A DNA stretch of 64,000 bases from Opitutales bacterium (GCA_965226885.1 CBDDEL010000014.1:320001-384000), one strand, 5' to 3'; counted from the stretch's first letter, positions 24,055 to 44,323 are shown. Notes: generated by a model not told the origin, from the sequence alone. Program-made: numbers and translations.

Positions 24055-25847
24055 TTATAATTCCTCGACCCAGAGAGTGTTGGCGATTCCGACATTTCCG
24101 GCCCAAGAACGGCCGCCGGCCCAGGATCTTCCCCCAGCCCATGAACGCCCGCCTGCCCATGATCTTCCGCCTGCCCAAGAACGCCCTCCGGCCCAGGAAC
24201 GCCCTCCGGCCCAGGATCTTCCGCCAGCCCATGATCTTCCGCCGGCCCAAGAACGCCCTCCGGCCCAGGATCTTCCCCCAGCCCAAGAACGACCACCGGC
24301 CCAGGATCGGCCGCCTGCCCATGTCATTCCATAACCCCAGCCCATCTGGTTGTCTTCCCAGGTGAGGCCGGATGATTCCAGAGTCTCCGAATCTATCCAC
24401 TCCAGGGTGTCTGTCCAGGCGGCGCCCAATGCCACCGTGGCTGCCTCTTCCTCATCATAGATGGTGTAAATAAAAGCGGAACTGTCATCGCTGGTCAGAA
24501 CATTGATCGGGCCCATATAATGGTAGGACATTTCAACCGGATCGACTTCGTCTGGGTCCACCATGTCGTCACCGTTCAGATCGACCCATCCGATTCCGTG
24601 GGCCAGATCGGCTTCCAAATCCATGCCGTAATTGGCCCGGCCGTCTTCCGGAATGTCGGCTCCGAAAATAGCGTTTGGCGCCCATATACGGCCCATTCCT
24701 TGTTGGAAGATATTGTAAACCAGGTCCCCGTCTGCATCGTTGATGGCGGGAGCCGCTGTGTACATTAAGCGAAATTTGACCTGATCGGGATCCAGGTCCG
24801 GGAGTGCGTCCAGCATCAGGGCCACCACACCTGAGGCAACGGCGGTGGACATGCTGGTTCCACTCATGCGAAAAAGGCTGCTCGATTCCGTATAATCGGG
24901 GTGTTGCTGGACCAGGGTGGCCGAATTGGTGATGTCGTCGGGATCGTTGTACATGAAAGAAACAATCTTGCTGCCCGGGGCCAGAATGTCGGGTTTGGCG
25001 AAATTATCCAAGGTCGGTCCCGTGGCCGACCAATCCGGCAGGATATCGTCCGACCAATCGGCAGCCGTCATATTGCTGTCCACTGCGCCCACCGTAATCA
25101 CATAAGGGTCGTTGCCCGGCACGGTTATACTTTCGGCGTTGGGCCCGGTGTTCCCAGCCGCGCCCACCACCACAATGCCGCTGGCCCAGGCTTGTTCCAC
25201 AGCCCGGTTTAATGGATCCACAAAATAGGGGGTGGTGGCATATGCGCTCAGGCTTAAATTAAGAACCCGGATTTTGTAATAATCTTTGTTATCAACGACA
25301 AACTGGATTCCTTCGATGACGTCCTCGTAAGTTCCCATACCCTCGTCATCGAGTGCCCTCACACTGAAGATTTTTGCGTTCGGGGCGATACCCAGGTAGG
25401 TATTCGAATCCAAATCTTTGAAACGGCTGCCGATAATGCCGGCCACATGGGAACCATGGCCATAGTAGTCTCGGCTGTTCTGGGCGTCGCTAATGCAAAA
25501 ACCGTCGTATTGCCACATGCCGTTCAGGTCGTCGTCGTCCACGCCGTCCAAATTTTCATCCTCGAAATACCCGTCATCGATACACATCCCATCGTCCACA
25601 AAATCAACCTGGGCAACAAAATGAATGGCATCTTTCATCGTCAGGATTTTTCCCTTCAGCGCCTCTGCATCCCCGTCGATTTCCGCTTCCGGTATGGGAA
25701 AGAAATACACTCCCGAATCAAGGACAGCAACCGTTACTCCTCCGCCCTTTATCTTCTCTCTGTGCAGTTCGTCGGCGCCCACATCCATACCAACGGGCCA
25801 AGCTTTGTCGGTCGCCTTCAGGTCTTTGATATGCACCTTGACTTTCT
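24055..25847 (-). pseudogene. S8 subtilisin-like (AprX-like) serine protease: catalytic domain and repeat tail; gene split by IS
   Basis: AVLDSG, YGHGSHVAGII, AAGN, SGTSMS catalytic motifs; joins 30700-31023 via TSD GACTTTCT. Confidence 0.92.
24097..24321 (-). repeat. 18-bp coding repeat: (WAGGRS)x12 plus WAG
   Basis: 13 Trp codons spaced exactly 18 nt apart; DNA units differ only at synonymous positions. Confidence 0.97.
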
Positions 25848-27453
25848 GGTAGTGTATAAAAAAAGAATGTTATTTTGTATTTTTAGCTGTACAAATAGCG
25901 TTAGGCAGTTTATTCTTAGTGCATGGTTACTAAAATTATTAATTGTCGGCACTGTGGAAGTGAAAATATCATTAAATTTGGCAAGACGCCCAACCATAAA
26001 CAGCGCTACCGCTGCCATGATTGTGGTAAACAAAGCCGCGAAAACCCCACAGTGAAATACACCGAAGAGCAAAAAGAAATGGGTAGTGTTAACATTTTGA
26101 ATGTTTAAGCTGTACTTTTTAGCGTGATTATGTTGTGAACTGGGAATGGTCCATATCACAGTAAAATGTCCTCAATGCGGAAGCGATCACATCATCAAGC
26201 ACGGCAAGGATCCGAAAGGGGTTCAGAAGTATCGATGCAAGGGGTGTGGTTATCAGTTTCGGCTTCACCCCAAAAGTCGTGAGCATCCTCCGGCGCTGGT
26301 CAAGCAGGTGCTCCGTGCGCACCAAAACCGGATGAGCCTGCGTGCCATTTACCGTACCTTCGGGGTAGCCCCAAAGACGGTCATCGAATGGATTAAAAAA
26401 AAGTCCTGAGTTTGCCGAAGCTGGAGTCCACTCTGCTTGCCCGCCAGTGTAGTGATGTGCTGGAACTGGACGAGGTGTGGTCATTCTGGGGCGATAAGCG
26501 TTCGGGGCAGGTATGGCTATGGGTAGCCTTGTGTCGACGTACCCGACAGGTCGTCGGGTTTTCTCTGGGTGATCGTAGCGATCAAACGTGCTGGCAGTTG
26601 TATCACAACATCGCCCAGCCCTATCGCGACTGTGCCACCGTAAGCGATTACTGGGAAAGCTACGACAAGGTTTTCCCTCACAACAGCGCCAGCGGGAAAC
26701 AATCCGGCCAAACCGCCCATATCGAACGCTGGAACAATACCTTGCGACAGTCCCTGTCACGCTATGTGCGTAAAACGCTGTCATTCTCGAAGTCTTTGGT
26801 CATGCATTTTCGCGTCCTGTGCTTGTTCATCTGGGAATACAACAGCAATATCAAACATTCGTCATGTTAACACTACCAAGAAATGATCCTTCGAGTCTAT
26901 CAGGAACGCAGCAGTCTACGCGGTTTACAGCGCGCCTTCGGGGTGAGTCCCAACACCGTTTTGAGTTGGTTAAAAAAAACGACAATCGCTGCGACCGCTC
27001 AAAAGCACGATTCTTGCGGCCCGCCGCCATGATGTCATTGAACTGGACGAACTGTGGTCTTTTGTGGGGCGCAAGAGCGATGCCCAATGGGTTTGGATCG
27101 CTCTTTGCCGACGCACCCGTCAAATCCTCTCCTATGCCATTGGGCCTCGGGATTGGTATCGTTGCCGGGAACTTTACGAGCGTCTGCCACGGGCCTACAA
27201 AAGATGTGCCACCTACAGCGACTTTTGGAGCACTTATGATGAAGTCTTTCCTCATAACCGATCCGTGGGAAAAGAAACCGGTGAAACGGCCCATGTGGAA
27301 CGATGGAACAATACCCTGCGCCAACGACTGGGTCGTTTCACACGCAAAACCCTCTCCTTTTCCAAGCTTAAGAGTATGCATGAAACCTGTCTGAGACTTT
27401 TCATTCATCAATATAATCAAGAATTAGCCACCATTCCTACTTAATACACTACC
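25848..27453 (+). mobile_element. IS1 type A interrupted by IS1 type B
   Basis: IRs at 25848 and 27453; nested element at 26082-26877. Confidence 0.93.
26082..26877 (+). mobile_element. IS1-family element type B (insA 26146-26409, insB to 26870)
   Basis: IRs GGTAGTGTTAACAT / ATGTTAACACTACC; 8-bp TSD AAGAAATG; A AAA AAG -1 frameshift site. Confidence 0.95.
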
Positions 27454-27535
27454 GATTACCGGAATAAGTTATATTTTTCACTTAAAACGCAGTTTGGGCA
27501 CATATTATTTCTCAATTTATAAAGGATTTCAAATC

Positions 27536-27575
27536 ATGAAATCAATTTTTAACATGCAAGGACCGGTTTACCTAG
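27536..27575 (+). pseudogene. Displaced first 13 codons of the S8 protease (MKSIFNMQGPVYL)
   Basis: AAAGGA RBS upstream; ends in CTAG and joins in frame with the reverse complement of 31023 downward (LVSLLFLSATSSF). Confidence 0.75.
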
Positions 27576-29142
27576 CCCGGATATTTCATGAAGGGTAAAG
27601 TTTGGCTCGTTATTGCTATTGGAGATGGATTTCTTTGTATTTTGAGCAGATCGTCTTGATTTTTAGGTGTTTTTCAGGGTGTAGAGACACTGCCCCCTTT
27701 CCCCCATTGGTTCGGTAGTGCCGGGGGCAGCACCAATGCACCCTTTAGGTTGGCACCAATCGGCGGGCCGCATGGTTGAAAAGACTGGCCCAAGGATAAC
27801 TCTCACTTAGGTGAAAGTGAATCGTTCGGGTGTTGCGCACGATGACCGCTCCGATCTTGATTAATTTGAGCCGCAGGGTGTGGCATTGGGCCCGCGCCCA
27901 CTTCGTCCCTTTTAAGGCTAACCGGCGCATGGCTTCCATCAAGGTGTAGGCCAGCGCCGACAAGAGCAATCGCCACTGATTGGCCCACCATTGATGGGCG
28001 CTGGTGCGCTCGCTGAACAATTGCATCTGTTCCTTGATTCGGTTCTCCATTTCACCGCGGCCACAGTATACCTTGTCGTAAAGCTCCTGGGGATCGCCCG
28101 GCAGGTTCGTCACCACGAAGCGCGGGTTGGACCCCTGTGCGGTGTGTTCGGCTTTATGGATGACCAACCGCAGCCATCGCCACGAATCGGCAGCATAGAC
28201 GAAGTCCTGGAATAACCGTTGTTTTTTACCCCTTAGTTCGAACCATTCTTTGGCCTGCTTTTGCAACTGCTGGGCGTCTTGCTGCAAGCGTGCATTGCGA
28301 GCCATCCCCACGATGTAACTAACTTCGTTGCGGTCGCACCAAGAGAGTATCCGGTCTCGACAAAATCCACTGTCGGCGCGCCAAATAATCCGCGTACGGG
28401 GCCAGCTTTGGCGAATCCGTTTAACCAGCAATTTGAGGATGGCCCCGGCATGCTTGCTGGCATCGATCTTGCTCGGCCGCAGGTAGGCCACCAGCAGCTG
28501 ATCACCGCAAAAAACATATAGCGGCAGAAAACAGTAATGATCATAATAACCGTGGAAAAAACGTCCCTCCTGGAGCCCGTGCACCGGATTGTCGGTGGCG
28601 TCAAAGTCCAGGATGATCTCTTCGGGTTCCTCGGCAAAGGAGCCCATGAACTGTTCGACCAACAGCTCGTTTACCGCAAAGGCCGCCCGCCGATCCTGCC
28701 CGTTTTCAAAACGACACAAAGTCGGCGCGCTGGCCAACGTTTCAATGCGCCCCGTTACCGTTTGCAACAATGGATCGTGGCGCAGGGTATCAAAGTCGTT
28801 CAAATCCTCATAGCCCGCCACCAGCCCGTAAACGCGCTGCCGCAGCATCCCCAATACCTCATGGCGTACTTTGCCCTTCTGCCGTTTGTCCACTAACTGT
28901 CGGGCCGCTCGTTCGGTCAAGCCCAACTGCCGATCCACTTCCCGGATCAAAAGCAGTCCGGCATCCGAAGTAACCTCTCCGCCCTTGAAATCAACCCGCA
29001 CACGGCGGCCTTTTACCCTTGTCAACTGTAGCTTTAATTGTTTACCTTTTGTCATCGCTGATATTGCTTTAATTATTGATCTATCCTGCTGTATATCAGC
29101 AGTTAAGCATATCAACGATACTTTTTTTACGAAATATCCGGG
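27576..29142 (-). mobile_element. IS1380 element, complete (transposase 27745-29115)
   Basis: Both IRs, 1567 bp, CTAG on each side, intact 456-aa ORF. Confidence 0.96.
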
Positions 29143-29832
29143 CTAGGGGACCTGGAAAACCAGGCCAGAAGTCTCGACAACCTAGGGGCCTTGCGCATGG
29201 CGCAGGGAAATTATGAAACGGCCGGGAACAACTTCAACGCAGCTTTGCAAATCCGCGAAAAATTGGGCGAAAAATATGGAGTATCGCAGTCTCGGGCCAA
29301 CCTCGCTCAATTAGCTCTAACGGTAAATAACATCGAAGAAGCATTACCTCATGCGGTGGCTAGTATGGAATTGGCCAAAGAAACCGGCGGCAAGGAAATC
29401 GAGGTTTGGGCAGGCTGGGTTCTGGCGTTGGTGGAAGCTGAAAACGAAGAGATGGAGAATGCTTTGGCAACCGCTAACAGGGCATTGCAACTGGCCCAAG
29501 ATGAAGGGTTCCGGGATGAAGAAATCGATTGCCTGAGAACATGCGGAATTCTCATCGCAAGAACCGGTGCTTATATTAAAGCCGAAGAAACTTTACGACG
29601 GTCTCTCGATCTATCACTTGAGGGAAAGGATCCTTATCGTGAAGGCCTTGCTCATTTAAATCTAGGCTTAATCCACCTTGAAAAATTGGAACAAGATGTT
29701 TCTCCCGAAAGAGAAATATTGCGCAAGAAAACACAAGGCTTTCTGCATGCGGCGAAAGAAATATTTGAATCCATGGGTTCTTCCAAGAATCTTATTCAAT
29801 GCAACACCGCACTGAAAAACTGCACCTATTGA
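29143..29832 (+). pseudogene. C-terminal half of TPR paralogue 3, displaced and inverted
   Basis: LGDLENQARSLDNLG..GGKEIEV..DEEIDCLR..DPYREGLA aligns by eye with 35332-36263 and 39715-40646. Confidence 0.85.
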
Positions 29833-29896
29833 TAGTTCTAATTAATCACGTGATTATAACGTTCTGTTTAATTTGAATAAATTAGTCAGATTACCG

Positions 29897-30699
29897 GGTA
29901 GTGTATAAAAAAAGAATGTTATTTTGTATTTTTAGCTGTACAAATAGCGTTAGGCAATTTATTCTTAGTGCATGGTTACTAAAATTATTAATTGTCGGCA
30001 CTGTGGAAGTGAAAATATCATTAAATTTGGCAAGACGCCCAACCATAAACAGCGCTGCCGCTGCCATGATTGTGGTAAACAAAGCCGCGAAAACCCCACA
30101 GTGAAATACACCGAAGAGCAAAAAGAAATGATCCTTCGAGTCTATCAGGAACGCAGCAGTCTACGCGGTTTACAGCGCGCCTTCGGGGTGAGTCCCAACA
30201 CCGTTTTGAGTTGGTTAAAAAAAAACGACAATCGCTGCGACCGCTCAAAAGCACGATTCTTGCGGCCCGCCGCCATGATGTCATTGAACTGGACGAACTG
30301 TGGTCTTTTGTGGGGCGCAAGAGCGATGCCCAATGGGTTTGGATCGCTCTTTGCCGACGCACCCGTCAAATCCTCTCCTATGCCATTGGGCCTCGGGATT
30401 GGTATCGTTGCCGGGAACTTTACGAGCGTCTGCCACGGGCCTACAAAAGATGTGCCACCTACAGCGACTTTTGGAGCACTTATGATGAAGTCTTTCCTCA
30501 TAACCGATCCGTGGGAAAAGAAACCGGTGAAACGGCCCATGTGGAACGATGGAACAATACCCTGCGCCAACGACTGGGTCGTTTCACACGCAAAACCCTC
30601 TCCTTTTCCAAGCTTAAGAGTATGCATGAAACCTGTCTGAGACTTTTCATTCATCAATATAATCAAGAATTAGCCACCATTCCTACTTAATACACTACC
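29897..30699 (+). mobile_element. IS1 type A (803 bp, A9 slippery run)
   Basis: Both IRs; left flank GATTACCG, right flank GACTTTCT. Confidence 0.95.
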
Positions 30700-31023
30700 G
30701 ACTTTCTTTCCCCTTTTCGCGGATTTGATGCGTTTGTTTTCCACAATGGAGACAATCTCGGGATATGCGGCCAATTCACCCAAACGGAATGAGGGAATTT
30801 CTGCCGCTACGGCATTGATGATATGAAGATCGCTGGTGACCTCTCCTCCCAACTTTGCCACAATGTGCGCCGCCGTGCGGGAGTTTTGAGCCGTTGCGAT
30901 AATGGCTATGGAATCCGACTCGCTATCCCATAAACTTGTTTCAACATAAGCAGGTCCATTATTAACCGATGGATCTGGCTCATAAAATGAAGAGGTTGCA
31001 CTTAAAAAAAGTAGGCTTACTAG
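30700..31023 (-). pseudogene. S8 protease signal peptide / I9-like propeptide fragment
   Basis: Open frame LVSLLFLSATSSF...GGEVTSDLHIINAVAAEIP..LAAYPEIVSIVENKRI. Confidence 0.8.
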
Positions 31024-32589
31024 CCCGGATATTTCGTAAAAAAAGTATCGTTGATATGCTTAACTGCTGATATACAGCAGGATAGATCAATAATTAAAGC
31101 AATATCAGCGATGACAAAAGGTAAACAATTAAAGCTACAGTTGACAAGGGTAAAAGGCCGCCGTGTGCGGGTTGATTTCAAGGGCGGAGAGGTTACTTCG
31201 GATGCCGGACTGCTTTTGATCCGGGAAGTGGATCGGCAGTTGGGCTTGACCGAACGAGCGGCCCGACAGTTAGTGGACAAACGGCAGAAGGGCAAAGTAC
31301 GCCATGAGGTATTGGGGATGCTGCGGCAGCGCGTTTACGGGCTGGTGGCGGGCTATGAGGATTTGAACGACTTTGATACCCTGCGCCACGATCCATTGTT
31401 GCAAACGGTAACGGGGCGCATTGAAACGTTGGCCAGCGCGCCGACTTTGTGTCGTTTTGAAAACGGGCAGGATCGGCGGGCGGCCTTTGCGGTAAACGAG
31501 CTGTTGGTCGAACAGTTCATGGGCTCCTTTGCCGAGGAACCCGAAGAGATCATCCTGGACTTTGACGCCACCGACAATCCGGTGCACGGGCTCCAGGAGG
31601 GACGTTTTTTCCACGGTTATTATGATCATTACTGTTTTCTGCCGCTATATGTTTTTGCGGTGATCAGCTGCTGGTGGCCTACCTGCGGCCGAGCAAGATC
31701 GATGCCAGCAAGCATGCCGGGGCCATCCTCAAATTGCTGGTTAAACGGATTCGCCAAAGCTGGCCCCGTACGCGGATTATTTGGCGCGCCGACAGTGGAT
31801 TTTGTCGAGACCGGATACTCTCTTGGTGCGACCGCAACGAAGTTAGTTACATCGTGGGGATGGCTCGCAATGCACGCTTGCAGCAAGACGCCCAGCAGTT
31901 GCAAAAGCAGGCCAAAGAATGGTTCGAACTAAGGGGTAAAAAACAACGGCTATTCCAGGACTTCGTCTATGCTGCCGATTCGTGGCGATGGCTGCGGTTG
32001 GTCATCCATAAAGCCGAACACACCGCACAGGGGTCCAACCCGCGCTTCGTGGTGACGAACCTGCCGGGCGATCCCCAGGAGCTTTACGACAAGGTATACT
32101 GTGGCCGCGGTGAAATGGAGAACCGAATCAAGGAACAGATGCAATTGTTCAGCGAGCGCACCAGCGCCCATCAATGGTGGGCCAATCAGTGGCGATTGCT
32201 CTTGTCGGCGCTGGCCTACACCTTGATGGAAGCCATGCGCCGGTTAGCCTTAAAAGGGACGAAGTGGGCGCGGGCCCAATGCCACACCCTGCGGCTCAAA
32301 TTAATCAAGATCGGAGCGGTCATCGTGCGCAACACCCGAACGATTCACTTTCACCTAAGTGAGAGTTATCCTTGGGCCAGTCTTTTCAACCATGCGGCCC
32401 GCCGATTGGTGCCAACCTAAAGGGTGCATTGGTGCTGCCCCCGGCACTACCGAACCAATGGGGGAAAGGGGGCAGTGTCTCTACACCCTGAAAAACACCT
32501 AAAAATCAAGACGATCTGCTCAAAATACAAAGAAATCCATCTCCAATAGCAATAACGAGCCAAACTTTACCCTTCATGAAATATCCGGG
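31024..32589 (+). mobile_element. IS1380 element with frameshifted transposase
   Basis: Both IRs, CTAG flanks, 1566 bp; one T missing in a T-run near 31655. Confidence 0.95.
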
Positions 32590-33361
32590 CTAGCCAATTT
32601 CCACTGATATCGAAAAGAACACCCAAATTGGTATAGGCAACACCCATACCCCATGAAAAATTCAACTCACGATAGAGCTTGAGGCTTCGTTCTGTGTTTG
32701 CAATCGCTTCATCGAGCTTACCTTGCTGGTAGCAGATGCCGCCCAATGTGTTGTAGAGACTAGCCAGAGTGGCGGAATCTTTTACGTCTTCCGTATCGAC
32801 ATCTACTTCTTGAAAAACTTCGTGAGCCAACGATATCGCTCCCTCCAAATCCCCCTGGCGGAAATGAATCCAGGCCAGGCGGTCCTTCAGAGTGTGAGCT
32901 AAAGCGGGGTATTGCTGCGTGGTTGTTTCACTCAAATAGCTGAAACTTTTTTCCAGAAACCCTTTGGCTTCCGCAAAGGAGCCGGTGCGTTGCTTGACGT
33001 CACCCAATTCACGCAAAGTACGGACCAGAGTGGGAGTAAAAAGGGTATATTTCGCGCCTCCCTCCCATTTTTTCAGATGGTCCAGAGTATCGGAAAATAC
33101 CAGACCGGCCTCCTCGAATTCACCGGTAAATTTTAAAGCCTGGCCCAAACCCAAACGGGCTTCGAAAAATTCTTCTTTTTGCCCATTCAATTGAGCCGGT
33201 AAAATTTCTATGGCGCGTCTGTAGTGTTTGATGGCATCATCGTTAGCACATTGCCGCCTGGCTTCACTTCCAATTTCGATTAAGTAAGAGACAGCCTTTT
33301 CCGGCTGGTTGTTTTTTAGGTAGTACTGAGCTTTATCTTCAGGGTTGGTATTTGGTGACAT
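32590..33361 (-). pseudogene. TPR paralogue 3, N-terminal half
   Basis: AAGGAG RBS; EARLGLGQALK, DRLAWIHFRQG, ASLYNTLGG, AYTNLGVL; cut by IS1380. Confidence 0.88.
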
Positions 33362-33957
33362 AGTGGCATACTCCTTAATTTAGGGTTTTATTTTTAGTCG
33401 ATTTATATGTACAGGCATAACTACCACATAGATAGCAACTATGCCGCTTTGAAAAAGAAGGGGGATAGAAAAAGCTAATTTAGCTTTAAATTAGTTCATA
33501 GCGAACTAACGAATCTAGCTATCTATTGACTATAATCAAGGTTATAAAATGGGTATTTTGTTAAAAATATGTAAAAATACTTATTATTTACGTATAAGTA
33601 CTAATATATAATCTTGATTAAGCACGTATTACTGATATTAGCTGCAAGTTTTATAATGTATTAATAATTAATCTAAATAAACATAAAATAACTAATACAA
33701 TGTATTAGAATAATACATATAACTATTTTAAAACCAAAAGAGTGATGTAACCACGGATTACTCGGTTGGGCGCTTATAGCTGGAACAATAGTGTCTGTAA
33801 CCCGCTGTTGTTGGCATTGCCGGTCGCCGTACCGGTTTGAAAACGAGCGGCTTTATGAATCACCAGGGTTTAGCCTTGGTGATTGTTTTAAACCAAATTT
33901 TGGCTGAATCCTGCATCGCGTAGACAGTATCAGGCAGGGCGTCTTTCGGCAACCTGA

Positions 33958-35285
33958 TGACGTGTACTGGATTTGTTGGACACGGGATTCTCTTATATTC
34001 ATTGTTTATTGATTAGTGTGTCAGGCGGCTTGTTTTGGTAACGGGTTTTGTTTTCTCGTTGCCCCCCATGGGGGGCAAATATTTTCCTCGAATTGGACTG
34101 GGCTTTGGTAACTCAGAGAGGAATGTTTGCGATATCGGTTGTAGAAGATTTCCACGTATTCGAAGACAGTTGATCGCAGTTCGCGCTCGTCGGCAAAGTG
34201 GCGGCCTCGAATCGTGCTGGTCTTGAAGCGGCCGTAGAACGATTCCATGGCCGCGTTGTCGTAGCAGTTGCCTTGGGCGCTCATGCTCGGCTTCATGCCT
34301 AGTTCAGAGACCAGCCTCTGATAGTCGTCGCTGGCGTAGGGGCTGCCCCGATCGCTGTGATGAATAATCCCGGTGCGCAGTGTGCCGCGGGTCATGGCCG
34401 CGGCTTTGAGGGCCTTGCCAACCAGCTTCGCGTCGTTGTGGTTGGAAACGCTCCAGCCCAGCAGGCGTCGGCTGAACAGGTCCATCACCGTGGCCAAGTA
34501 CATCCAACCGGCCAGGGTCCGTAGGTAGGTCGTGTCCGCCACCCAGACCTCGTCGATATGGGTCGGCTGGCCATGCTTTTTAAGCACATTGGGGCTGTAA
34601 CCATAGGGATGGTTACTGTTGGTTTTTAATGGCTTAAAGCGTTTACTCTGGGTGCTTTTGATTCCCATTTCACGCATCAGACGCAGAGCCCGGTCACGGC
34701 CGCAATCGATGCCCTCATCATCCTTCAGATGGCGGTGCATTGGCCGATGCCCATAGCGGCCCTTGGCCTCTTTGTGTACCTTCAGGATCGCCCCCTTGAT
34801 TCCCTCGTCCTCGATCCGCCGGGCCGAGGGCGCTCGGTGCCTCCAGCAGTAATAGCCACTGCGACAAATCCCCATCGCCGAGCATATTTCCTCGATCTTG
34901 AAGCGCCCCTCGTTGTCTTTGACAAACTGGTACTTCATTGTTCGTCCTTGGCAAAGTAGCCCACCGTTTTTTTTAGTATCTGGTTGATCCGCTCCGAGCG
35001 GCGCAGCTCTTTGCGAAGACGATCTATCTCGGCCGCCATCTCCTTCGGACTGCTCTGTCGCTTTGAGGTGGCTTCGCCCTGCTGATCGTCCAGATAGAGC
35101 CTCTTCCACCTATACAATTGGTTGGTGTTGACCCCAAGTTTGGTCGATACCTCGGTGGCGCTCAGACCATCGAGTATCATCAGTTGAACTGCCTCATTTT
35201 TGAACTCTATACTAAAGCGTCTTCTTCCCATGCTTCGATTCTCCATTTAGGAGAATCTCGTGTCCACTTTTTCCAGTGCACATCA
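33958..35285 (-). mobile_element. IS3-family element, complete (orfA 34935-35246, orfB 34021-34938)
   Basis: Same element as 11456-12780; 4-bp TSD CTGA. Confidence 0.96.
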
Positions 35286-35331
35286 CTGATCAAAAGGGGG
35301 GCTCCAGAATTGCCGAAGAACCAAAATGCGG

Positions 35332-38300
35332 TTAATTGTTCAGGTATTTATTTAACTCCGCTTTGGCTTGTCGCAGGTTGTGCTCGCTGCCGAGATTTTG
35401 GAAAATTGTTATCGCTTCGCGGAAGTATTTAATGGCTTTATCACGCAATTGGGTGAGTTCCGGCGCTTCTTTTTCGAGATGAGTCAAGAATACCCGGCCC
35501 AGCTCCATTAGAGCCAGACCTTGTCGATAGGGGTCGCTTTGTTCTCGGGATAGATCGAGTGATCCTTGCAGAGATTGCTCAGCTTCGCTAAAATTCCCAC
35601 CTCGTGCCAGCAATAGGCCGACGATCCTCAGGCAATCGATTTTTTCATCTTGGTATCCGCCTACCCGAGCCATATGCCAGGCCTGCATGGCGGTCTGCAA
35701 GCCTTTGGTCAAATCGCCGCATTCGGCCTGCACCATGGCTAAAATCCAGCGTGCATAAACCTCGATTTCCTTTGCCCCTATGGCCATTGCCAATTCCAGG
35801 CTGATATTGGCATGACTGGCGGCATCATCGAGACGCTTTTCGAATAGAGCGATTTGAGCCAGGCTGGCCCAAGATTGGGCGACGCCCATACTTTCCCCCA
35901 GTTGTTCCCGGATGGCTAAAGCCGCTTCCAGATCTCGCCGGGTAGCTTTGTGGTCGCCCAGTGCCATGCGCAGGATGCCCAGGTTGTCCAGGCTGCAAGC
36001 CTGGTTGTCGAGGTCACCGATTTCTTTTTGCACCTTGTAGGCTCTTTCGTAATATTCAATGGCTTTTGACCAGTCACCTTCTATATCGTGAAGGACGCCG
36101 AGATTGGTTTGTGTCACACCCGTCCCCCGCAAGTTATTTTCCTCTTTATACAACTTCAGACTGAGTTCTAGTTGTTCAATGGCTGTGCCGAGATGGCCTT
36201 TTTGCCAATTGATCCCTCCCAGGGTGTTGTAGAGGCTGGCGAGGGTTCCGGTATCGTCCGATTTGTAAACGCCGGGATGAAACCGGTACGGGGGTCGGGG
36301 TAAAACCGGTACGCTTGGAATAAGGTTTAGGTTAGTAATTGCAGGTACGTCAAGGTTTAGGGTTTGGGAGTTGGTTTTGGGGATTGGCTTGGGGTCGGTG
36401 AGGAGGCCGGAGGCCGACGAGCCGGGCCCAAGGCGTTTATTGTTTTGTGCCACGGCGACGGCGTCGAGCATCGCGCAAGCGGTAGCTTTGCCCGTTGGCT
36501 TCGAGGATATGCACCCGATGGGTGAGTCGGTCCAGCAGAGCTCCGGTGAGCCGTTCGGAACCGAGCACTTCGATCCAGTTCTCAAAGGGCAGGTTGGTGG
36601 TGACGATGAGACTGGTGCGCTCGTAAGCGCGGCTGACCACGTCGAAGAGCAGTTCGGAACCGGTCTTGGAAAAAGGGACGTAACCGAGTTCGTCGAGGAT
36701 GAGTAGGTCGAGCCTTTCGAGTTGCTTCATGAAGCGCTGCAGGTCGTGGTTGTCGCGTTGCTCGAGCATATGGGTAACCAGGGCGGTGACCCCGAAGAAA
36801 CGGATCCGCCGGCCCTGGGCACAGGCGGCAAAGCCCAGGGCGGTGGCCAGGTGCGTTTTACCGGTACCGGCGTTACCGAGGAGCAGCACGTTTTCGCGCT
36901 GGTCGACATACTCCCCGCGCATGAGCTCTCGGATGAGCGCTTCGTTGATCGAGGGCTGCGCTTCAAAGGCGAAGCTCTCGAGGGTCTTGAGCACGGGGAA
37001 ACGGGCGTTTTTGATCCGCCGCTGGGCGGCCCGCTGTTCGCGTTCAATGAGCTCCCGTTCGACCAGATGCAACAAAAAGGCGGCGTAATCGAGCCGGTCC
37101 CGGGAACAAGCCGCGGCCACCGCCGGCCATTCGCGCAGGATGGTGGGCAACTTCAGTTTCTTGAGGTGATGGTGTAACAGCAGCTGGTTTTTTTCTTCCT
37201 TCATAAAGCCCCTCCTGGAATCTTGAGCAGTTCGCTGTAGGCACCGAGGTCAGGGGCGGCCACACGGACGTGACGCAGGTGTGGATGGCCGTCCCCAGCC
37301 GGAAGGTTCTGCTCCCGTAGTCTTCCTGAGGATAGAGATACTGGGCGATGGCCTCACGAGTCAGTCCCCCCACCCGCAGGGCCGAGACGACGGCCTGCTG
37401 CAAGGCCGCCATGGGGTGTTTCTCCAACAGCCGCAGCACCCGGATATACTCCCGGGTGCCTTCGCCCCCGCATTGGCTTTCGAGCCGGCGTCTGAGGACC
37501 TGCAGGCACTGCGGCAACTGCCAGCCCGAGAGTGGGCGGGCGAAGTCCAAAGCGCCCGGTTTTTTCTCCAGCAAAGCCAGGTAGTGCACCGGCTCGAAAG
37601 AGACTTGCTCTTTATCCCAAATGCGGCGGTGCCGGGCCACCTCTTGGCCCCCACAGAAGATCACCACCTGCCGACAGGACCCTTCCACCACCACCGGATG
37701 GTGGGCGCAGCGCACCGGCACCGAATAGTCGTTGCACTCGAAGCGCACCAGCGAGAGGCTGCTGACGCAGGTCGAGCGTTTGCGGCTCGCTTCAAAGGGT
37801 ATGGGCGGCAACGCCAGCATGACGGCGCGCTCCTCGGCCAGCAGTTCCTTTTTCACCGCCCTTTTCCCGCGTAATTTACGCTCCATGTCCCGCTCACATG
37901 CCTCCAACAGCTTTGCGTTGAGTTCCTCCAGGTCCCGAACCTGCGGTACCGGTACCAGGAAGTTGGCCCGGGCATAACGCACGATCCCCTCGACCACGCC
38001 CTTCTCGTTGGGCCGGGCGGGCAGACAGAAGTGTTCCTCGAACAGGTAATGGCTCTGTAGCTGCAGAAACCCGTCGGTCAGCTTGCGTTCACGCGAACCG
38101 ATAATCTTACCCACCGCCACCTTCGAGTTGTCATAGCTGATGCGCCGGGGCACCGCCCCGAAAAACTCAAAAGCTCGCAGGTGCCCCTCCCAGAAGCTCT
38201 CCGTGCACTCCCGTTCGAACACCTGCACGAAAAAGGCATCGCTGTAGGGCAGGCTCATGGCAAAAAATGGCCGCCTACGCAATTGCCCCGCCTCCTTCAC

Positions 38301-39509
38301 CAGGGCATGACCGAAGTCCACCTGTCCCTCCCCGGGGCGGTGCTCCAGCGGCACGAACACTTCCCGCCGCCTCGCTCGCAGCTCGGCCACCACCTCCTTG
38401 ACCGCCGTGTAGCCCCCTTGGTAGCCCTTCTCCCGACCCAAACGCTGGTAGATCCGTTTGGCCGTATGGCGCTGCTTCTTGGGCACGTTCCGGTCCGCTT
38501 TGAGCACCTCCTCGATCCAGCCCACATACGGATCGATCTTGCGCTCTCGCCTCTTCTTGCGCCGGTATCCCGGCGGCTGGGAATAGGCCAGCATCTTTCC
38601 CAGGGTCTCCCAGTGCAGTCCCTCTTCTCGCATTACAGAGCGCTTGCTCTGCTTGTCCCGCAGCACTTTGTGCCGCACTCTTGTCCATTGCTTCATATCT
38701 CGATACACTCCTCCTTTCTAGGATAAGCGTACCGGTTTTAAAGCGCCCTCTTTACCGTACCGGTTTTTCCCCGGCGTTTACACCGATTTATCTATTATTG
38801 AGCTTTCGATGGCGGCATTAGCGGTCTCCAGGGCATTCCGGAAATCTCCCTGCCGAAACCGGATCCAGGCAATTCGATCCATCAGTCTGCACCATAGCTG
38901 GCGTTGTTTTTCGTGCCTGGATTTGCTTAAATGATGCAACCCCAATTCAAGGTAGTTCATGGCTTCGGCAAAGGAGCCTTCGCGTTGCCGGACATCCGCC
39001 AATTCCCGTAAAGTTTCTACCAGGATCGGGGTAAAAAAAGCATGGCTGGCGCGATTTTCCCATTTTTCGAGGATTTGCAGGATGTCGAGCAGAACCGTTT
39101 GCGCCTCGACAAATTCGCCCCTCAGTTTGAGGGCATTGCCCAGGCCCAGCCGGGCTTCAAAAAACTTTTTATTATCCCCGTTGAGGCGTTTTGGGAGCAA
39201 ATCCAAGGCCTGCCGATAGTGCCGTATGGCGGACTCATTGGCGGAACAGCGCCTTGCCTCATCCCCAGCTTTAATCAGGTAATAGGCCGCTTTTTTCGGT
39301 TCATTGCTCTTTAATAATTGTAGAGCCTGGTCCTCTTCCTGTTCGGAATTTGGCAAGTGGGGTCTTTCTGTTTTGCGGAATATAATGCGCCCTGGCTTTA
39401 GGTCCTCTTGGGCTATCGGGAATTCAATTGGAGAGGATTTTAAATATCGGTTTAAAAAAAACAAGGAATATTGGTCTGAAATTTTGTTAAAAAAAGGTAA
39501 AATTTTCAT
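35332..39509 (-). pseudogene. TPR paralogue 2 (about 550 aa) interrupted by IS21
   Basis: Removing 36264-38782 and one CCGATT restores ..IDKSDDTGTLASLYNTLGG.. in frame. Confidence 0.9.
36264..38782 (-). mobile_element. IS21-family element (istA 37201-38708 with 3' frameshift; istB 36437-37204)
   Basis: TGT..ACA ends, 6-bp TSD CCGATT; retains the FECNDYSVPVR segment lost in the other two copies. Confidence 0.96.
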
Positions 39510-39714
39510 AAATCGTTAATTTTGACTTTCCCATGTTTATGAGACCGGCAGGTAGATGGTGCATCAAAAATTGCCTTTTCAGCACGTTCAATTAACACTT
39601 TTTTTTGGAAAAGGCTCAGCGTGAGCTTTCTCCAGGGTGTAGGTTGGTCTATGCTTTTTGGGGAGGGAGCAGGTAATGTGGCTGCCCGGGTAAACAGGGT
39701 GTCTAATTCCGAGT

Positions 39715-42700
39715 TTAGAGCTGACGGCTTTGGATGCACAATTGCAGCGTTGTCTCGGCTTTGCTGAGGTTTGGGTTTGATCCCAGAGTTTTGAAAATGC
39801 GGATGGCTTCGCGGCAATAATTTTCTGCTTTTTCTCGGGTTGGCTCCCCATTTTCTTCTTCCGTTTCCGCTTTGTTGAGCCATGCCTGGCTTAATTCCAG
39901 TAAAGCGAGTCCCTGCCTGTAGGGGTCTCGTTGTCGAAGGGAAAGTTCCAGGGAGCTTTGCAGTGATGGCATCGCTTGATTGAATTTGCCTCCGCGTGCC
40001 AGGAGCAATCCGACAATGCGCTGGCAGTCAATTTCTTCATCCACAAATCCACCCTCGCGAGCCATTTGGTGGGCCTTTTGAGCGGTTGCAATGGCGAGTT
40101 TTAATTCACCATTATTGGCTTGGACCATGGCTAAAATCCAAATGGCGCGAACTTCAATCTCTTTTCCACCAATGGCTTTGGCCAAACTGAGGCTAATTTC
40201 AGCGTGACGGGAAGCCGCCTTTAATTGATTTTCCAGCAATCTGAGCTGGGCCAGACTGCTACGGGACCGGGCCATTCCGAAGCTTTCTCCCAATTGTTCA
40301 CGAATCTTCAAGGCGGTTTTCAGGTTGTGCTGGGACGCCGAAAAATCTCCTTTGGCCAAATATAAAATCCCCAGATTATCGAGGCTACAGGCTTGATTTT
40401 CGAGGTCACCAATCGATTTTTGCAAGGAATAAGCCCGTTCGTAACAGCTAATCGCATTGGGCCAATCGCCCCTGATATCATGGAGAACTCCGAGGTTGTT
40501 GTAGGCAACGCCCATTCCCCCCGAATAATTCAATTTATCATACCATTGCAGGCTCCGTTTCACGTGGAAAATGGCTTTATCAAGTTGACCTTGTTGCCAG
40601 CATATTCCCCCCAGAGTATTGTGCAGACTGGCCCGAATTGCCGGATTATTAATCCGGCAATTGAATAGTAACAGTTAAGCGGCGTATTGAACATCCCGAT
40701 GATGGAAGAGTTTTTTAATCAAAATTGGTTTTCGTTGCCTGCTGCGCAGGTGGGTTCGCAGACTTCCCTGCAACTCAATTTGGCTGCGCGGGGCCGGCAG
40801 GTTCTTCAAGTTGGCTTTGACCGTGTTATTCAAATACTCATCGGGGTTCAATTTGGGACTGTAAGATGGTAGATAAAAAATCCCGATCCTATCGCGGTGG
40901 GCTTCAATCCAACCGGTTACTTTTTTAGCATGATGCACTCTCAGATTGTCCACAATGAGAAAGATTTTCCGTTTGGCTCCTTTGATTAACTGGCGCAGAA
41001 ATTTGATAAACAGTTCCACATTCAAGGCTCCCTTGTAAACCATGAAACGCAGCTTTCCACGGTTGGTTATAGTCGAGATCATGCTCGTGCTAAAACGACG
41101 CGCACTGCGTTTGGCAACTGGCGTTTTACCGCGCGGAGCATAACCTCTTCCCCGATGATCTTCGCTACTGATGCCGGTGATGCCGGTTTCATCTCCCCAG
41201 TGGATTTGGGCCTGTTGCGCTTTGGCTCTGGCTTCGATGGCCGGGTAAGTTTGATCAAGCCACCTCTTAATCGCCTCAGGCTGCTGCTCATAGGCTTGTC
41301 TTCGAGGTTTTTGTGGAGTGAAACCCCAACGGCGAAGATACTCGCCCACCGTGCGGATCGGCATCTTCAAAGCAAACTGCCTTTCAATCAACTCTTGCAC
41401 CGCTTGGCGCGTCCACAGGGCAAAGGGCATCTTAAGCTGGTCGGGTCTCTTATCGGTAATCATTCGGCACACCATGCGCTCTTGTTGGGAGCTCAATCTT
41501 CGACATTGGCCCTGCCGACGGCCCCGTTGTCCAAGCCGCAGGGCTTTTGGCCCTCCATTTCGGTAAAGGGCCCACCATCTGCGCACAGCGCTGATCGATA
41601 CCTTTAAAACCACGGAAACCTCTTCATAAGTGCAACCCTCTCTTTTCAGATCCACCGCCCGACACCTCAGCTCATATATAGTCTCTTCGCTTAGTGAACG
41701 CGCATCATTCCTATTCATGAACCTACTTTAGCATAAGTTATTGATATGTCACTATTTATTTGCCGGATTAATAATATCCGATTCGGTTTCAACATTCTCA
41801 ATAGCCTGGAGGGCAGCCTCAAGGGCCTTTTGTAGTTTGCCTTGCCGGAAATAGATCCAGGCCATGCGATCCAATACAGAGTTCAACAACTCCCGGTTAT
41901 TTTGCGGCGCTATTTTATCAATTTGTTGTAAACTTGTTTCCAGGTAGTTCAATGCGGGATCGAATGCTCCTTCACGTTGGTGAACATCGGCTAACTCCCG
42001 TCGTATTTCTACCAGGGTGGTTTTAATTGAGCTGGCTTCGGAGTCCCTGTCCCATTCCTCCAATTGATCCAGAGCTTCTGCCAGGATGCGCCGAGCTTCC
42101 AGGTATTCACCGGTCAGCTTCAAGGCATTGCCCAAGCCGAGCCAGATCTTTGAATACGATTCGCACTGCTTGATTGTGGGCTGAGCAAGCAAGGTGCATG
42201 CTTTTCTGTAATGTTCGATGGCGATCTCGTTGGCGCCGCTGTTTCTGGCTTTGGCGGCCGCTTTAATCAGGTAGGGCATGGCTCTTTTCGGTTTGCTGCT
42301 CTCATAGAAATGAAAGGCCATGGCCTGCGCCTTTTCACTTTGCGGCCAGATCGAACTTTTATTAATTGCGAGGGCGGCTTGCAGGTGAATTTTCTGCCGT
42401 GGCTGCTTCAATAATGTGCTGTAAATGCCTTCCTGAATCAAGCTGTGTCTAAATGCAAAACCGATGCTGGATTTGAAGGGTTTGGGAATAATGAATTGTT
42501 TAGCCACCAGTTCCTGCATTTGCTTGGTGATGGTTCTTGTGGTTGCGCGCTTCATTTCGATCAGTAGATCCATAGGAAACGATGAACCCAGCACCGCGGC
42601 ATGATACAATGTGCGCCGCAGCGCCGCGGGAAGTTCATCATAACGAGCAAGGACTAACCCCTGGAGGCTTCCGGGCACTTTTTGCAGCGCCTCATACGCT

Positions 42701-44323
42701 CCTTCCCGCACTCGCCATGTGCCATTGTTTTTTTCCAGTTTCTCCTGGTCGATCAACATGCGGATTATTTCCTCAACGTAGAAAGGATTGCCCGCGGCCC
42801 GATCTGCTATCCTTTTTTTGAGAGGCTCGGTCTCTGCGGAAGATTCGTTTATGATCTGCTCGATAAGGCATTGGCCCTCGGCATCTGTAAGAGCCCGCAA
42901 TTGAATATCGACAAACCGGCCAGGGTTTTTTTCGGCAGCTTTTAACAGCGTCTCCAAAACCGTTTCCCTCTCCAACTGCCGGGAGCTGAAAACAAGCATC
43001 AACGGCGCGTCAGCAACCGTTTGCACCAGATACTCGAGAAAATCCCGGGAGGCCGGATCAATCCAGTGCAGGTCTTCGAAAATCAAAACGGCCGGAGTTG
43101 ATTGGGCCAGTGTCAAGAGGAGTTTGCGCAGGGCGGAGTGGATCTGCTTTTGCAGCATCTTGGCGTCTAATTTTCGAAAAAGGGCATCGAATTTTTCATC
43201 CTCAATCTGCAGGCCCAGCACGAGGGCCAAATAAGGCCGCAATTCGTCATTCTCCAAACCATGCTTTTTGAGGAATGAAAGGAGCGCTTCACTCTGCATG
43301 GGCGCCGGATCGATCTGGGACAGGTTCAAAATATCTCTTAAAAGATCGGCTACCACCCAGAGGGGTTTGGAACGAGTATAGGCGGGGCAATTCCCCTGGT
43401 AAATGTCTATATTCAAATCATCGGAGGAGGACTTGAATTCAGCGATCAGCCTGGTTTTTCCCACACCGGCTTCGCCCCACACCGGCTTCGCCTGAGAGTA
43501 TGGCAATGCAGCTGCTGATTTGACTTATGACTTCACCCAATGCCTCTTGTAATTTCGCTAAATCTTCTTCCCGCCCGATCATCGGAGTACTTAATCCTGG
43601 CAAGCCTCGCAATCGATCCGGGTTTTCCTTTATGGCCAGCGCCTGATAAGCCGCCACGGGCTTTTCTATGCCCTTAAGCTCTATCGGAGGCAGCGGCCTG
43701 TATTCAAAAAGCGGTTTCGTCGGTTGGTAGGTTTCACTACTGGCCAGGATGGTGCCTGGTTGTGCGTTTTCCTCCAACCGTTTGGCCAGGTTGACGGTGT
43801 TACCAATAACCGTATATTCCAAATGACGGTCGGGACCAATTTTCCCGGCGATGACCGATCCGGAATTGATGCCGATGCGGATTTCGAAATGAATTCCGTA
43901 TTTCCTTTTCAGCCGTCTTTTCATGGGCGGTAAAATAGCCAACATCTCAAGGGCGGCCCTGACGGCTCGTTCCGGATCGTTTTCATGGGCCACGGGGGCC
44001 CCGAATAAAGCCATCAGCCCGTCTCCCATAAATTTATCAATGGTGCCCTCAAATTTGTAAACAACCTGGGCCAACAGGCGCATGGTTTCATTGATGAAAA
44101 GGTAAACCGTTTCACTATCAAGACCTTGGGATACACCGGTGAAATTGGAAATATCCAAAAACAGAATGGTAACCTCTCGCCTTTCACCAACCTCGTCTGC
44201 GGTTATGGCATTGATTTTTTCATTGAGAGTCTCCGGCATGAGATCCCAAAGATGTTTCATCCCTTCATCCTTCGTCATGGCTGCGGATGAACGGTCTTTC
44301 AATTCGTCTTGAGTTGAATTCAT
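39715..44323 (-). pseudogene. Class III adenylate cyclase - AAA/STAND ATPase - TPR protein (about 1155 aa reconstructed)
   Basis: ERREVTILFLDIS, IDKFMGDG, EYTVIGNTVNLAKRLE; Walker A GEAGVGKTRL; LIFEDLHWID; AAGNPFYVEE; TPRs. Frameshifted by a 16-bp duplication at 43461-43492 and interrupted by IS630. Confidence 0.92.
40649..41771 (-). mobile_element. IS630-family element (transposase 40675-41718)
   Basis: IRs TTAATCCGGCAA / TTGCCGGATTAA, TA duplication; WGDETG, VDNLRVH, PSYSPKLNPDE motifs. Confidence 0.95.

Follow-up and report, generated by a model that had tools for sequence, protein, structure and literature searches.

In the RRNPP systems of Firmicutes (Rap-Phr, NprR-NprX, PlcR-PapR, AimR-AimP), the gene for a cytoplasmic TPR receptor lies beside the supplier of a short exported peptide, and maturation of the Phr peptides is carried out by secreted proteases of the subtilisin type. 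Peptide sensing by membrane histidine kinases is represented by AgrC-AIP and ComD-CSP. The TOMM system kinase/cyclase fusion proteins (TIGR03903) and the mycobacterial Rv0386-type cyclases are cyclase-STAND-TPR proteins, for none of which we know of a ligand. Plant burpitides, fungal borosins and kexin-processed repeat peptides, on the other hand, derive from enzyme-fused multi-core precursors. The locus described here, positions 24,055 to 44,323 of a 64,000-nucleotide stretch of DNA from an Opitutales bacterium (the window), shares features with each of these systems.

Upon in silico excision of eight IS copies (seven insertion sites, one copy nested), reversal of two IS-mediated inversions and reduction of a 16-bp tandem duplication to one copy, four co-directional ORFs of 1155, 550, 485 and 714-728 aa are obtained, which encode, in this order, a class III cyclase-STAND-TPR protein, two TPR-only proteins and an S8 subtilase ending in (WAGGRS)12. 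A preliminary description made from the sequence alone had proposed these four consecutive genes, and Pfam and the rebuild bear it out; likewise, all seven target site duplications (TSDs) that it named are found at IS junctions, and its scattering of the genes is real, although the unique fragments number eight and not seven. The IS borders were set by blastn depth against the window's own genome and by junction sequences, with Pfam matches in addition for the IS630, IS21 and IS3 elements, IS4-like copy A, IS1 copy A and the copy nested in the latter.

Gene 1 (minus strand, as all features unless stated otherwise) consists of a 5' part at 41774..44323 and a 3' part at 39715..40646, separated by an IS630-family element with a 347-aa DDE_3 transposase (40647..41773; TSD TA). 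Gene 2 (38783..39509 and 35332..36263) is split by an IS21 element carrying istA and istB (36264..38782; TSD CCGATT), and an IS3-family element (33958..35285; TSD CTGA) occupies the spacer between genes 2 and 3. The 5' part of gene 3 (32594..33361) ends at the frameshifted IS4-like copy B (DDE_Tnp_1_4; 31020..32593, plus strand), the inverted partner of copy A (27572..29146), which encodes an intact 456-aa transposase; both have CTAG ends. Between the two copies lie the 5' end of gene 4 with its start codon and a signal-peptide-like N-terminus (30700..31019), moved there by the inversions, IS1 copy B (29897..30699, plus strand) and the inverted 3' part of gene 3 (29147..29896, plus strand; ORF 29191-29832). 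Part of the spacer that separated genes 3 and 4 (27454..27571, plus strand) then precedes IS1 copy A (25848..27453, plus strand), which splits gene 4 and itself harbours a second type of IS1 (26082-26877; TSD AAGAAATG), and the main part of gene 4 (24055..25847) follows. As the flanks of the IS1 copies are exchanged (GACTTTCT/GATTACCG for copy A, GATTACCG/GACTTTCT for copy B) and the C-terminal fragment of gene 3 lies on the plus strand, two nested inversions, one between the IS4 pair and one between the IS1 pair, need to be reversed. The four genes have been damaged solely by IS elements, through insertion and through rearrangement that cost the gene 3 product 16 aa, and by the 16-bp duplication. 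All four genes are thus broken, as had been recognized before, and the module in this genome is dead.

The gene 1 product possesses a class III nucleotidyl cyclase domain (Guanylate_cyc, PF00211; 93.4 bits, cut-off 21.9) and a STAND NTPase domain (AAA_16; 61.6 bits, cut-off 32.6), with Guanylate_cyc and AAA_16 matched on 43439-44323 and AAA_16, at the score given, and the first TPRs on 41752-43506. The cyclase motifs FLDISNFT, IDKFMGDG and EYTVIGNTVNLAKRLE are visible, including the K and T residues which we take to be ATP-specifying. The frame is broken within the P-loop by the 16-bp tandem duplication (43460-43491), the removal of which restores the Walker A motif GEAGVGKT; with one TA retained at the IS630 site, the open frame spans 1160 codons from stop to stop and 1155 aa from the first start codon. 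Contigs from a run of another study (X3) join 40646 to 41772 and lack the duplication; as they carry neither the IS630 element nor the duplication, the rebuilt cyclase allele occurs in nature. Further TPR_12/TPR_MalT matches extend over 39715-40563 in gene 1, 38778-39509 and 35332-36585 in gene 2, and 32567-33361 and, on the plus strand, 29191-29832 in gene 3. The rejoined gene 2 product has 550 aa and that of gene 3 485 aa; the latter is 89% identical to its G004 orthologue, compared with which it lacks 16 aa at the IS4 junction (16 gaps against L012). The two TPR-only paralogues have no further Pfam domain. By inspection, no signal peptide is found in the TPR proteins of the unit, and these putative receptors look cytoplasmic.

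Among NCBIfam models, TIGR03903 is the best match of the cyclase-STAND protein, with which it shares class III cyclase, P-loop STAND NTPase and TPRs in identical order. Membership can be rejected, the scores being 186.8 and 77.7 bits for a cut-off of 705.75 and a kinase domain being absent. In contrast to the TIGR03903 and Rv0386-type proteins, the window protein has neither a kinase nor a LuxR domain, and a candidate ligand is encoded next door.

This candidate is the tail of gene 4, a secreted-type S8 subtilase ending in (WAGGRS)12 as initially described (Peptidase_S8, PF00082, on 24055-25836; 159.9 bits, cut-off 21.8). The rejoined protein of 728 aa, or 714 aa from the first Met, aligns, at 72% identity, from one end to the other with the G001 orthologue, which is intact and has 718 aa; residue 15 of the rejoined protein lies opposite G001 residue 1. 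The columns of the Asp-His-Ser triad and the oxyanion Asn (D40, H127, S328 and N229) are invariant in subtilase alignment A1, and the match to the nearest solved structures, chains 9ues and 3afg, is limited to the catalytic domain. Assignment to the type VII secretion mycosins (TIGR03921) fails at 129.1 bits for a cut-off of 278.75. As a signal-peptide-like N-terminus is present in all full-length orthologues of the genus, the subtilase acts outside the cytoplasm. Downstream of the catalytic and a middle domain, the twelve identical WAGGRS units (24106..24321) are preceded by degenerate W-spaced units and followed by the C-terminal cap WAGNVGIANTLWVEEL. Ten different 18-nt units encode the twelve repeats, with a mean pairwise difference of 3.9 nt, and all nucleotide differences are synonymous, none non-synonymous.

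With 300 other Verrucomicrobiota genomes sampled, the module is confined to a single genus of Opitutales and has probably been acquired horizontally, while the subtilase family is found mainly in Chloroflexota. The preliminary description made its idea dependent on synteny in other genomes, and here the idea survived: the subtilase adjoins sensor genes both in the genus and across Chloroflexota. In five of the six genus loci retrieved the neighbour is a TPR-only or cyclase-STAND-TPR gene; in the sixth, L016, the subtilase is the only module gene within 8 kb. Family-wide, an orthologous cyclase-STAND-TPR gene stands beside the subtilase in 17 of 78 loci, a 7-TM sensor in 24, starting -162 to +391 bp from the subtilase stop, and a TPR-only or weak STAND protein in 6; the 31 loci without such a sensor are mostly on truncated contigs. 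When at least 5 kb are available on both sides (35 loci), a sensor is adjacent in 28 (15 7-TM, 10 cyclase-STAND-TPR, 3 TPR-only or weak STAND) and none in 7. The subtilase family thus habitually adjoins a sensor of one of two unrelated architectures, an adjacency kept while gene order varies between co-directional, divergent and convergent. Partner type is clustered on the subtilase tree, with both types in both deep clades.

With respect to the cyclases, the subtilase-adjacent copy is the best match to the window cyclase-STAND protein among 4-27 paralogues in all five Chloroflexota genomes tested; close cyclase paralogue pairs without a subtilase also exist (L095, L097). A cyclase-STAND orthologue is missing from G001, in which the TPR-only gene and the subtilase are present, so that cAMP is dispensable as an output. 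The 7-TM partners, histidine kinases or HD-GYP proteins nearly devoid of an extracellular domain, are fused to HisKA/HATPase_c in 23 of 26 cases, and in three loci an OmpR-type regulator follows the histidine kinase. Five genomes contain 13 genes of the 7-TM family, 9 of which immediately follow such a subtilase; every copy is next to this protease family in four of the five genomes, and in G341 four of eight 7-TM genes have no subtilase within 4-5 kb. The three 7-TM domains tested have no Pfam match up to an E-value of 1; MASE9 (PF20972), the nearest lead with an Atlas feature score of 0.80, is not matched either. Like AgrC and ComD, these receptors are polytopic, with about seven TM segments, and mostly kinase-fused, here encoded directly after the subtilase. 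They differ from AgrC-AIP and ComD-CSP in that no AgrB- or ComAB-type export/processing gene is present and the 7-TM domain lies outside Pfam families, and the window module itself is of the apparently cytoplasmic TPR type.

Throughout the family, the subtilases bear arrays in which one W-[SGAT]-G-G-x-x(-x) unit is repeated without change; 70 distinct units were found, identical within one protein and different between proteins. The Trp is invariant in all 70, and GG occupies positions 3-4 in about 85%. In 43 arrays with at least five identical units, these are encoded by varied synonymous codons (median 2.43 nt per unit pair). Judged at the codon level, the repeat tail is a family-wide feature under purifying selection for the peptide. 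At L078, where two subtilase-kinase pairs stand in tandem, the units differ (GGYLWT and GGYVWA), and the 7-TM parts of the two sensors have diverged no more than the kinase parts. In the seven Chloroflexales loci, which all have a convergent cyclase, the place of the array is taken by an 8-13-mer with RR, KR or RK that recurs exactly, in two or three dispersed copies; the copies differ by 1-8 synonymous nt, and the motif varies by species. These prohormone-like dispersed copies with a dibasic site fit the protease as its own multi-copy signal precursor.

The reading we prefer, at a probability of roughly 0.45, is that the window holds a defunct copy of a signalling module acquired by horizontal transfer, in which the secreted subtilase would most likely be its own multi-copy signal precursor. 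Sec would export the pre-pro-enzyme, and its array would be processed to hexapeptides; in the simplest case the subtilase would itself cleave behind the invariant Trp, yielding AGGRSW-type peptides. The ligand of the neighbouring receptor would be either the released peptide or the uncut array. In the window module, the STAND cyclase and the two TPR-only paralogues would act as receptors through their cytoplasmic TPR domains, with ligand binding leading to STAND oligomerisation, pairing of the cyclase domains and elevated cAMP; in the sister modules, a membrane 7-TM histidine kinase or HD-GYP protein would take this role. Peptide signalling had been suggested from the outset, and adjacency of sensors in relatives and peptide-level selection on the repeats speak for it. 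The specific proposal of SWAGGR release by cleavage after Arg does not hold in general, as Arg occupies that position in only 20 of the 70 distinct units while the Trp is invariant. Repeat and TPRs, whose co-variation had been named as a check at that stage, co-vary weakly (partial Mantel r = 0.23, p = 0.04, n = 11), and the module contains no importer gene, though the TPR receptors look cytoplasmic.

An unlikely but serious competitor is that the W-G-G array is structural, a stalk spanning the wall or a ladder of Trp residues that binds glycans or surfaces, in a surface protease, with the sensors only regulating the protease or sensing its proteolysis products and not the tail. Conserved degenerate W-spaced units ahead of the array and a conserved ...TxWVxD/E cap behind it would suit a folded repeat domain, and the further domains or membrane anchor which follow the array in L024, L025, L036 and L040 would suit a stalk; 13 of 120 homologues terminate in [LFIY][FYL]LP..., which resembles a sorting signal, similar units are found with both receptor types, and the repeat regions of some surface proteins are likewise conserved mainly at the peptide level. 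Yet every residue is fixed in every unit, even at positions freely variable between species, and neighbouring paralogous modules retain distinct, internally uniform units. In the Chloroflexales members, the dispersed exact 8-13-mers lie in variable spacers, which makes a regular stalk impossible. A structural role also leaves unexplained why two unrelated sensor types stand beside one protease family, including all 7-TM copies in four of five genomes.

Still less probable is that the array is the multi-core precursor of a modified (RiPP-like) peptide, with tailoring enzymes encoded elsewhere and the cyclase-STAND-TPR protein as pathway regulator, a role that has been proposed for kinase/cyclase fusion proteins near TOMM clusters. 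The TIGR03903 match and TPR matches to the RiPP-associated HaaT and FxSxx proteins, all below the NCBIfam cut-offs, point in this direction, as does the occurrence of enzyme-fused multi-core precursors in plants and fungi, which likewise bear many identical short cores on the same polypeptide as the enzyme acting on them. Those precursors belong to eukaryotic natural-product pathways with peptide modification, whereas here a bacterial secreted S8 protease is partnered by a sensor and no modification is implied. No conserved tailoring enzyme adjoins the subtilase in the 22 loci with Pfam-scanned neighbours or in the genus loci, a lone radical SAM gene (L039) is not recurrent, the window module and the genus loci contain TPR, cyclase and subtilase genes only, and the TIGR03903 score is far under its cut-off. 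A STAND-based defence system, in which the TPR-STAND protein senses an invader protein, the cyclase makes a second messenger and the subtilase is effector or unrelated neighbour, recalls the STAND NTPases with TPR sensors and peptide-processing partners among the conflict systems described in PMC7159879, and would agree with the apparent horizontal transfer and with weak NCBIfam matches of the subtilase to the anti-phage S8 peptidase IteS (26-40 bits, cut-off 900), but is highly improbable given the signal-peptide-like N-terminus in all full-length genus orthologues and an alternative partner that is an ordinary membrane histidine kinase, with an OmpR-type regulator behind it in three loci.

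If the subtilase is its own signal precursor, the module would resemble RRNPP systems in the putative arrangement of a TPR receptor gene beside the supplier of a short exported peptide. Unlike in RRNPP systems, there is no small adjacent gene for an exported propeptide; the sole candidate precursor is the tail of the protease of about 715 aa with its 12 identical copies. Also, a STAND-gated class III cyclase takes the place of the HTH domain or phosphatase/anti-activator as output, the TPR-only proteins have no output that can be recognised, and the hosts are Chloroflexota and one Opitutales genus. The adjacency of sensors in intact relatives suggests a form of peptide signalling in bacteria that has not been described so far. 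We tentatively consider that it may be widespread, with a W-x-G-G-x-x(-x) array cut into many copies of one short peptide, for which the receptor would be either a 7-TM kinase or HD-GYP protein or, once the peptide has been taken up, the TPRs of an adenylate cyclase gated by STAND. Should this be so, the cyclase-STAND-TPR proteins, a large orphan family, would have their first ligand.

The region 24055–44323 carries fragments of four genes interspersed with insertion sequences, as identified with Pfam. On the minus strand these are Guanylate_cyc with the start of AAA_16 (43439–44323), AAA_16 with TPRs (41752–43506), TPR_12/TPR_MalT matches (39715–40563, 38778–39509, 35332–36585 and 32567–33361) and Peptidase_S8 (24055–25836, 159.9 bits), with one further TPR_12/TPR_MalT fragment on the plus strand (29191–29832). 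The intervening ORFs were assigned by Pfam to the transposase families DDE_3 (IS630 type), IS21 IstA/IstB, IS3-type rve, DDE_Tnp_1_4 (IS4-like) and IS1. When the region was compared by blastn with the window's own genome (5.48 Mb), sharp steps in depth marked the IS ends; depth reaches about 325 with the IS4-like element, 215 with IS1, 145 with IS3, 80 with IS21, 48 with another IS1 type and 20 with the IS630 type. The window contains no fewer than 15 IS copies, and IS expansion is extreme in this genome, which has 5.48 Mb compared with 3.4–4.3 Mb in sister genomes. A fragment of a different TPR protein (63279–63893, minus strand; TPR_10/NPHP3-type TPRs, 227 bits) adjoins another broken IS4-like copy and is by tblastn unrelated to the TPRs of the module.

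All target-site duplications listed in the preliminary description (TA, CCGATT, CTGA, CTAG ends, GATTACCG, GACTTTCT and AAGAAATG) are present at the junctions. As two IS1 copies have exchanged flanks, judged by their junction sequences, and two IS4-like copies form inverted repeats of 942 and 637 nt (100% complementary) that enclose the plus-strand TPR fragment, two nested inversions besides the insertions are needed for the present order. In addition, a 16-bp tandem duplication at 43460–43491 shifts the frame in the P-loop of gene 1. Upon removal of the IS copies with one target-site copy kept per junction, reversal of the inversions and omission of one duplication copy, the four co-directional genes that had been proposed were recovered, encoding a class III cyclase-STAND-TPR protein (1155 aa), the TPR-only paralogues TPR2 (550 aa) and TPR3 (485 aa) and an S8 subtilase (728 aa, or 714 aa from the first Met). 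The rejoined subtilase aligns over its full length with the intact 718-aa orthologue of a sister genome (G001; 72% identity), and TPR3 is 83% identical to the orthologue of another (G004), with 16 aa absent at the IS4 junction. Independent support for the reconstruction comes from X3, a public sequencing run of another study, in which one contig is identical over 433 nt and lacks the 16-bp duplication and a second joins 40646 to 41772, representing an IS630-free allele.

Strains differ in the out-of-frame tandem duplication of the cyclase gene, as contigs of X3 and of a further public run, X5, lack the 16-bp duplication and contain as a second tandem copy the 20 nt that are single at 43678–43697 of the window; this reflects either separate decay events or a gene prone to slippage. 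The window's own genome shows no further copy of the subtilase, STAND or TPR genes, and its sole module copy is destroyed by IS expansion. Together with the different cyclase frameshift in other strains, this indicates that the module is being lost in this species. Among the public runs listed, no RNA run matches the locus. Downstream of the subtilase, an amidohydrolase gene (21304–22674, minus strand) is also the subtilase neighbour in G004 (L012:4859–6286), which points to a chromosomal setting common within the genus; G001 has methyltransferases at this position.

The co-location of W-x-G-tailed S8 proteases with cyclase-STAND-TPR or TPR-only genes, anticipated in the preliminary description, was found in loci of the genus and of Chloroflexota. 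Within the genus, the subtilase adjoins a TPR-only gene in four loci (L011, L012, L013 and L015), has a full cyclase-STAND-TPR on one side and a decayed TPR gene on the other in L014 and stands alone within the 8 kb examined in the sixth, L016; no cyclase-STAND orthologue was found in G001. A one-genome-per-species scan, which reported 592 relatives, left 78 loci: four from Opitutales MAGs, about 65 from Chloroflexota and a few from Acidobacteriota or Actinomycetota. In 17 of these a cyclase-STAND-TPR gene (cyclase domain 42–68% identical) lies immediately beside the subtilase, or 9.5 kb off in L019, in co-directional, divergent or convergent orientation. Another 24 loci encode, −162 to +391 bp behind the subtilase, a roughly 500-aa protein with a common seven-helix N-terminal domain (7-TM sensor), six have a TPR-only or weakly similar STAND protein as sole partner, and 31 have no partner, most of them on contigs ending within 3 kb. 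Among the Chloroflexota or Opitutales loci flanked by 5 kb or more on each side (35 loci), the counts are 15 7-TM, 10 cyclase, three TPR-only or weak STAND and seven without partner.

The outputs of the 7-TM proteins are HisKA/HATPase_c (23/26), HD_5 (2/26) or none seen (1/26), and in L050, L053 and L066 they are followed by an OmpR-type regulator. The domain itself, which has no Pfam match at E up to 1 and for which Atlas points weakly to MASE9, comprises about 240 aa with seven predicted helices and conserved FN.GM, PW, N.WLL, LQ.G and FFLPI.LSAYAFRLY motifs; it is carried by L078:7819–9321, L039:12182–13663 and 24 further genes, fused to histidine-kinase or HD-GYP outputs. Locus L078 contains two tandem subtilase-kinase pairs with the internally uniform units GGYLWT and GGYVWA, respectively, whose sensor and kinase parts have diverged equally (55.9% versus 57.6% identity). 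Tandem cyclase-STAND-TPR genes without intervening stop form open frames of about 2330 aa in L030:9–7013, L035:1379–8359 and L049:887–7894, the first copy being a close orthologue and the second 27–30% identical; these genes may be fused or merely in frame.

In the window, the repeat tail of 12 WAGGRS units draws on 10 different 18-nt sequences; unit pairs differ on average at 3.9 positions, all of them synonymous. The six subtilase copies examined from the four sister genomes each contain 10–14 WAGGRS or WAGGRA units and then a WAGxxGxxxTxW[VI]xx end. In a search of 5.8 billion proteins, 3517 matches were obtained among 8000 scored candidates, the best of which (43–60% identity, about 700 aa) derive mostly from Chloroflexota MAGs. 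At least three identical tandem units are present in 44 of 120 proteins among the matches listed and in 54 of the 78 genomic loci, giving 70 different units, 29 of six and 41 of seven residues, in which Trp is invariant and followed by S/G/A/T and then, in about 85%, by Gly-Gly, with the other two or three positions variable. Where five or more units of an array are identical (43 arrays), unit pairs differ by a median of 2.43 synonymous nt. It is established that selection acts at the peptide level on every unit of the tail. The release of SWAGGR by cleavage after Arg, as originally proposed, does not hold as a general rule since position 5 is Arg in no more than 20 of the 70 units; from the unit pattern, the invariant Trp appears to be the better P1 candidate.

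Seven Chloroflexales loci are without an array and instead show an 8–13-mer with a dibasic pair (for example VEPSRRLVWV) that recurs exactly in two or three dispersed places, with spacers of about 15–50 non-repeated residues between them. Its copies are 1–8 synonymous nt apart and the motif varies between species, a layout that resembles a prohormone and not a solenoid. Searching 1.84 billion representatives with the tail only gave 91 matches, mostly unrelated low-complexity hexapeptide repeats, with no clear non-subtilase carrier, and Pfam at E up to 1 gave no match on the tail. An AlphaFold2 model built from a 14-row alignment is of low confidence throughout (mean pLDDT 46.6), with poor values in the catalytic domain too and values of about 20 in the tail; the prodomain has sub-threshold matches only (Inhibitor_I9, E 0.052; CspB_prodomain, E 0.0056). 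With respect to other C-termini, a short [LFIY][FYL]LP[LAMVF][LVI].. motif follows a linker in 13 of the 120 listed homologues (P0001, P0002, P0004, P0012, P0023, P0028, P0033, P0034, P0047, P0063, P0069, P0070 and P0085), and the subtilase at L040:1726–5238 ends in a TM helix with basic tail; both types of ends may be Chloroflexota sorting signals. A second subtilase gene of this family is located upstream of the repeat-bearing copy at L025:4939–9291 and at L036:4388–8575; its product starts with a PQQ-type beta-propeller and has additional domains at the C-terminus, and a solute-binding protein follows instead of a sensor.

Cumulatively, these data establish that subtilase and sensor form a functional module and that the candidate receptors are of two unrelated architectures, which mirror the two classical bacterial ways of reading exported peptides. 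In the simplest unifying mechanism, the tail of the subtilase would be the ligand source for the adjoining sensor, a tentative reading with a probability of roughly 0.45. Alternatively, with a lower probability, the tail could be a structural stalk with a regulatory neighbour. Conserved caps flanking the array speak for a stalk and weigh against a ligand source, as do extra domains or a TM anchor after some arrays, the absence of an importer gene from the module, the occurrence of similar units with both receptor types and the weakness of the co-variation of repeats and TPRs proposed as a check (partial Mantel of unit against TPR distance with cyclase distance controlled for, r = 0.23, p = 0.04, n = 11, the rows being related). 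That the adjacency arose by chance is rejected on the basis of reciprocal-best and whole-genome counts.

Five Chloroflexota genomes encode 4–27 AAA_16-TPR paralogues each, and in all five the subtilase-adjacent copy is the best match to the window's cyclase-STAND protein (E 1e-99 to 1e-168); genome G043 holds a third pair (L096, unit TYGTWAG). In L095 and L097, close cyclase pairs in tandem, neither a subtilase nor a repeat-bearing ORF was found nearby, so the link is not obligate. Five genomes contain 13 genes of the 7-TM family: in four of them every copy, five in total, is directly behind such a subtilase, and the fifth genome, G341, has four of eight in this position and four without a subtilase in the 4–5 kb examined. 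Partner types are clustered on the maximum-likelihood tree computed from 65 subtilase domains, with 5 changes for 7-TM versus a shuffled mean of 15.8 and 8 versus 14.7 for the cyclase, and both types occur in both deep clades; as kin share labels, this clustering shows persistence of the pairing and not co-evolution.

Strong subtilase matches are present in all four same-genus genomes; 36 other genomes of the order gave none (best E 7.7e-17), nor did 300 further Verrucomicrobiota genomes at E ≤ 1e-60. The Opitutales subtilases group in a single clade (support 100/99) within the Chloroflexota rows of the unrooted tree; transfer was presumably in the direction of Opitutales. The nearest relatives of the cyclase are subtilase-linked Chloroflexota copies, and the genes were probably acquired together as one module.

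By analogy, the module would work like RRNPP or Agr/Com peptide signalling, but it departs from the RRNPP definition in precursor and output. With NCBIfam, the assignments of the cyclase-STAND-TPR protein to TIGR03903 and of the subtilase to the mycosins were rejected, and no family scores above its cut-off for the module proteins. For conflict systems, the coupling of STAND-TPR proteins with peptide-processing genes has been discussed, but not the combination of this module (PMC7159879). No description of repeat-tailed subtilases beside sensors was found in Creative Commons PMC papers and bioRxiv.

Peptide signalling through cytoplasmic TPR receptors is regarded as a speciality of Firmicutes; the hosts of the module are Chloroflexota, filamentous bacteria prominent in wastewater, mats and sediments, and one host-associated Opitutales genus. 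For cyclase-STAND-TPR proteins, a class of orphan sensors that includes mycobacterial members, the module offers a concrete candidate ligand that is readable from the adjoining gene and cheap to test; comparisons can draw on 70 natural variants of the unit and on receptors of two architectures. If true, the subtilase would be the first bacterial protease known to us that carries its own multi-copy signal.
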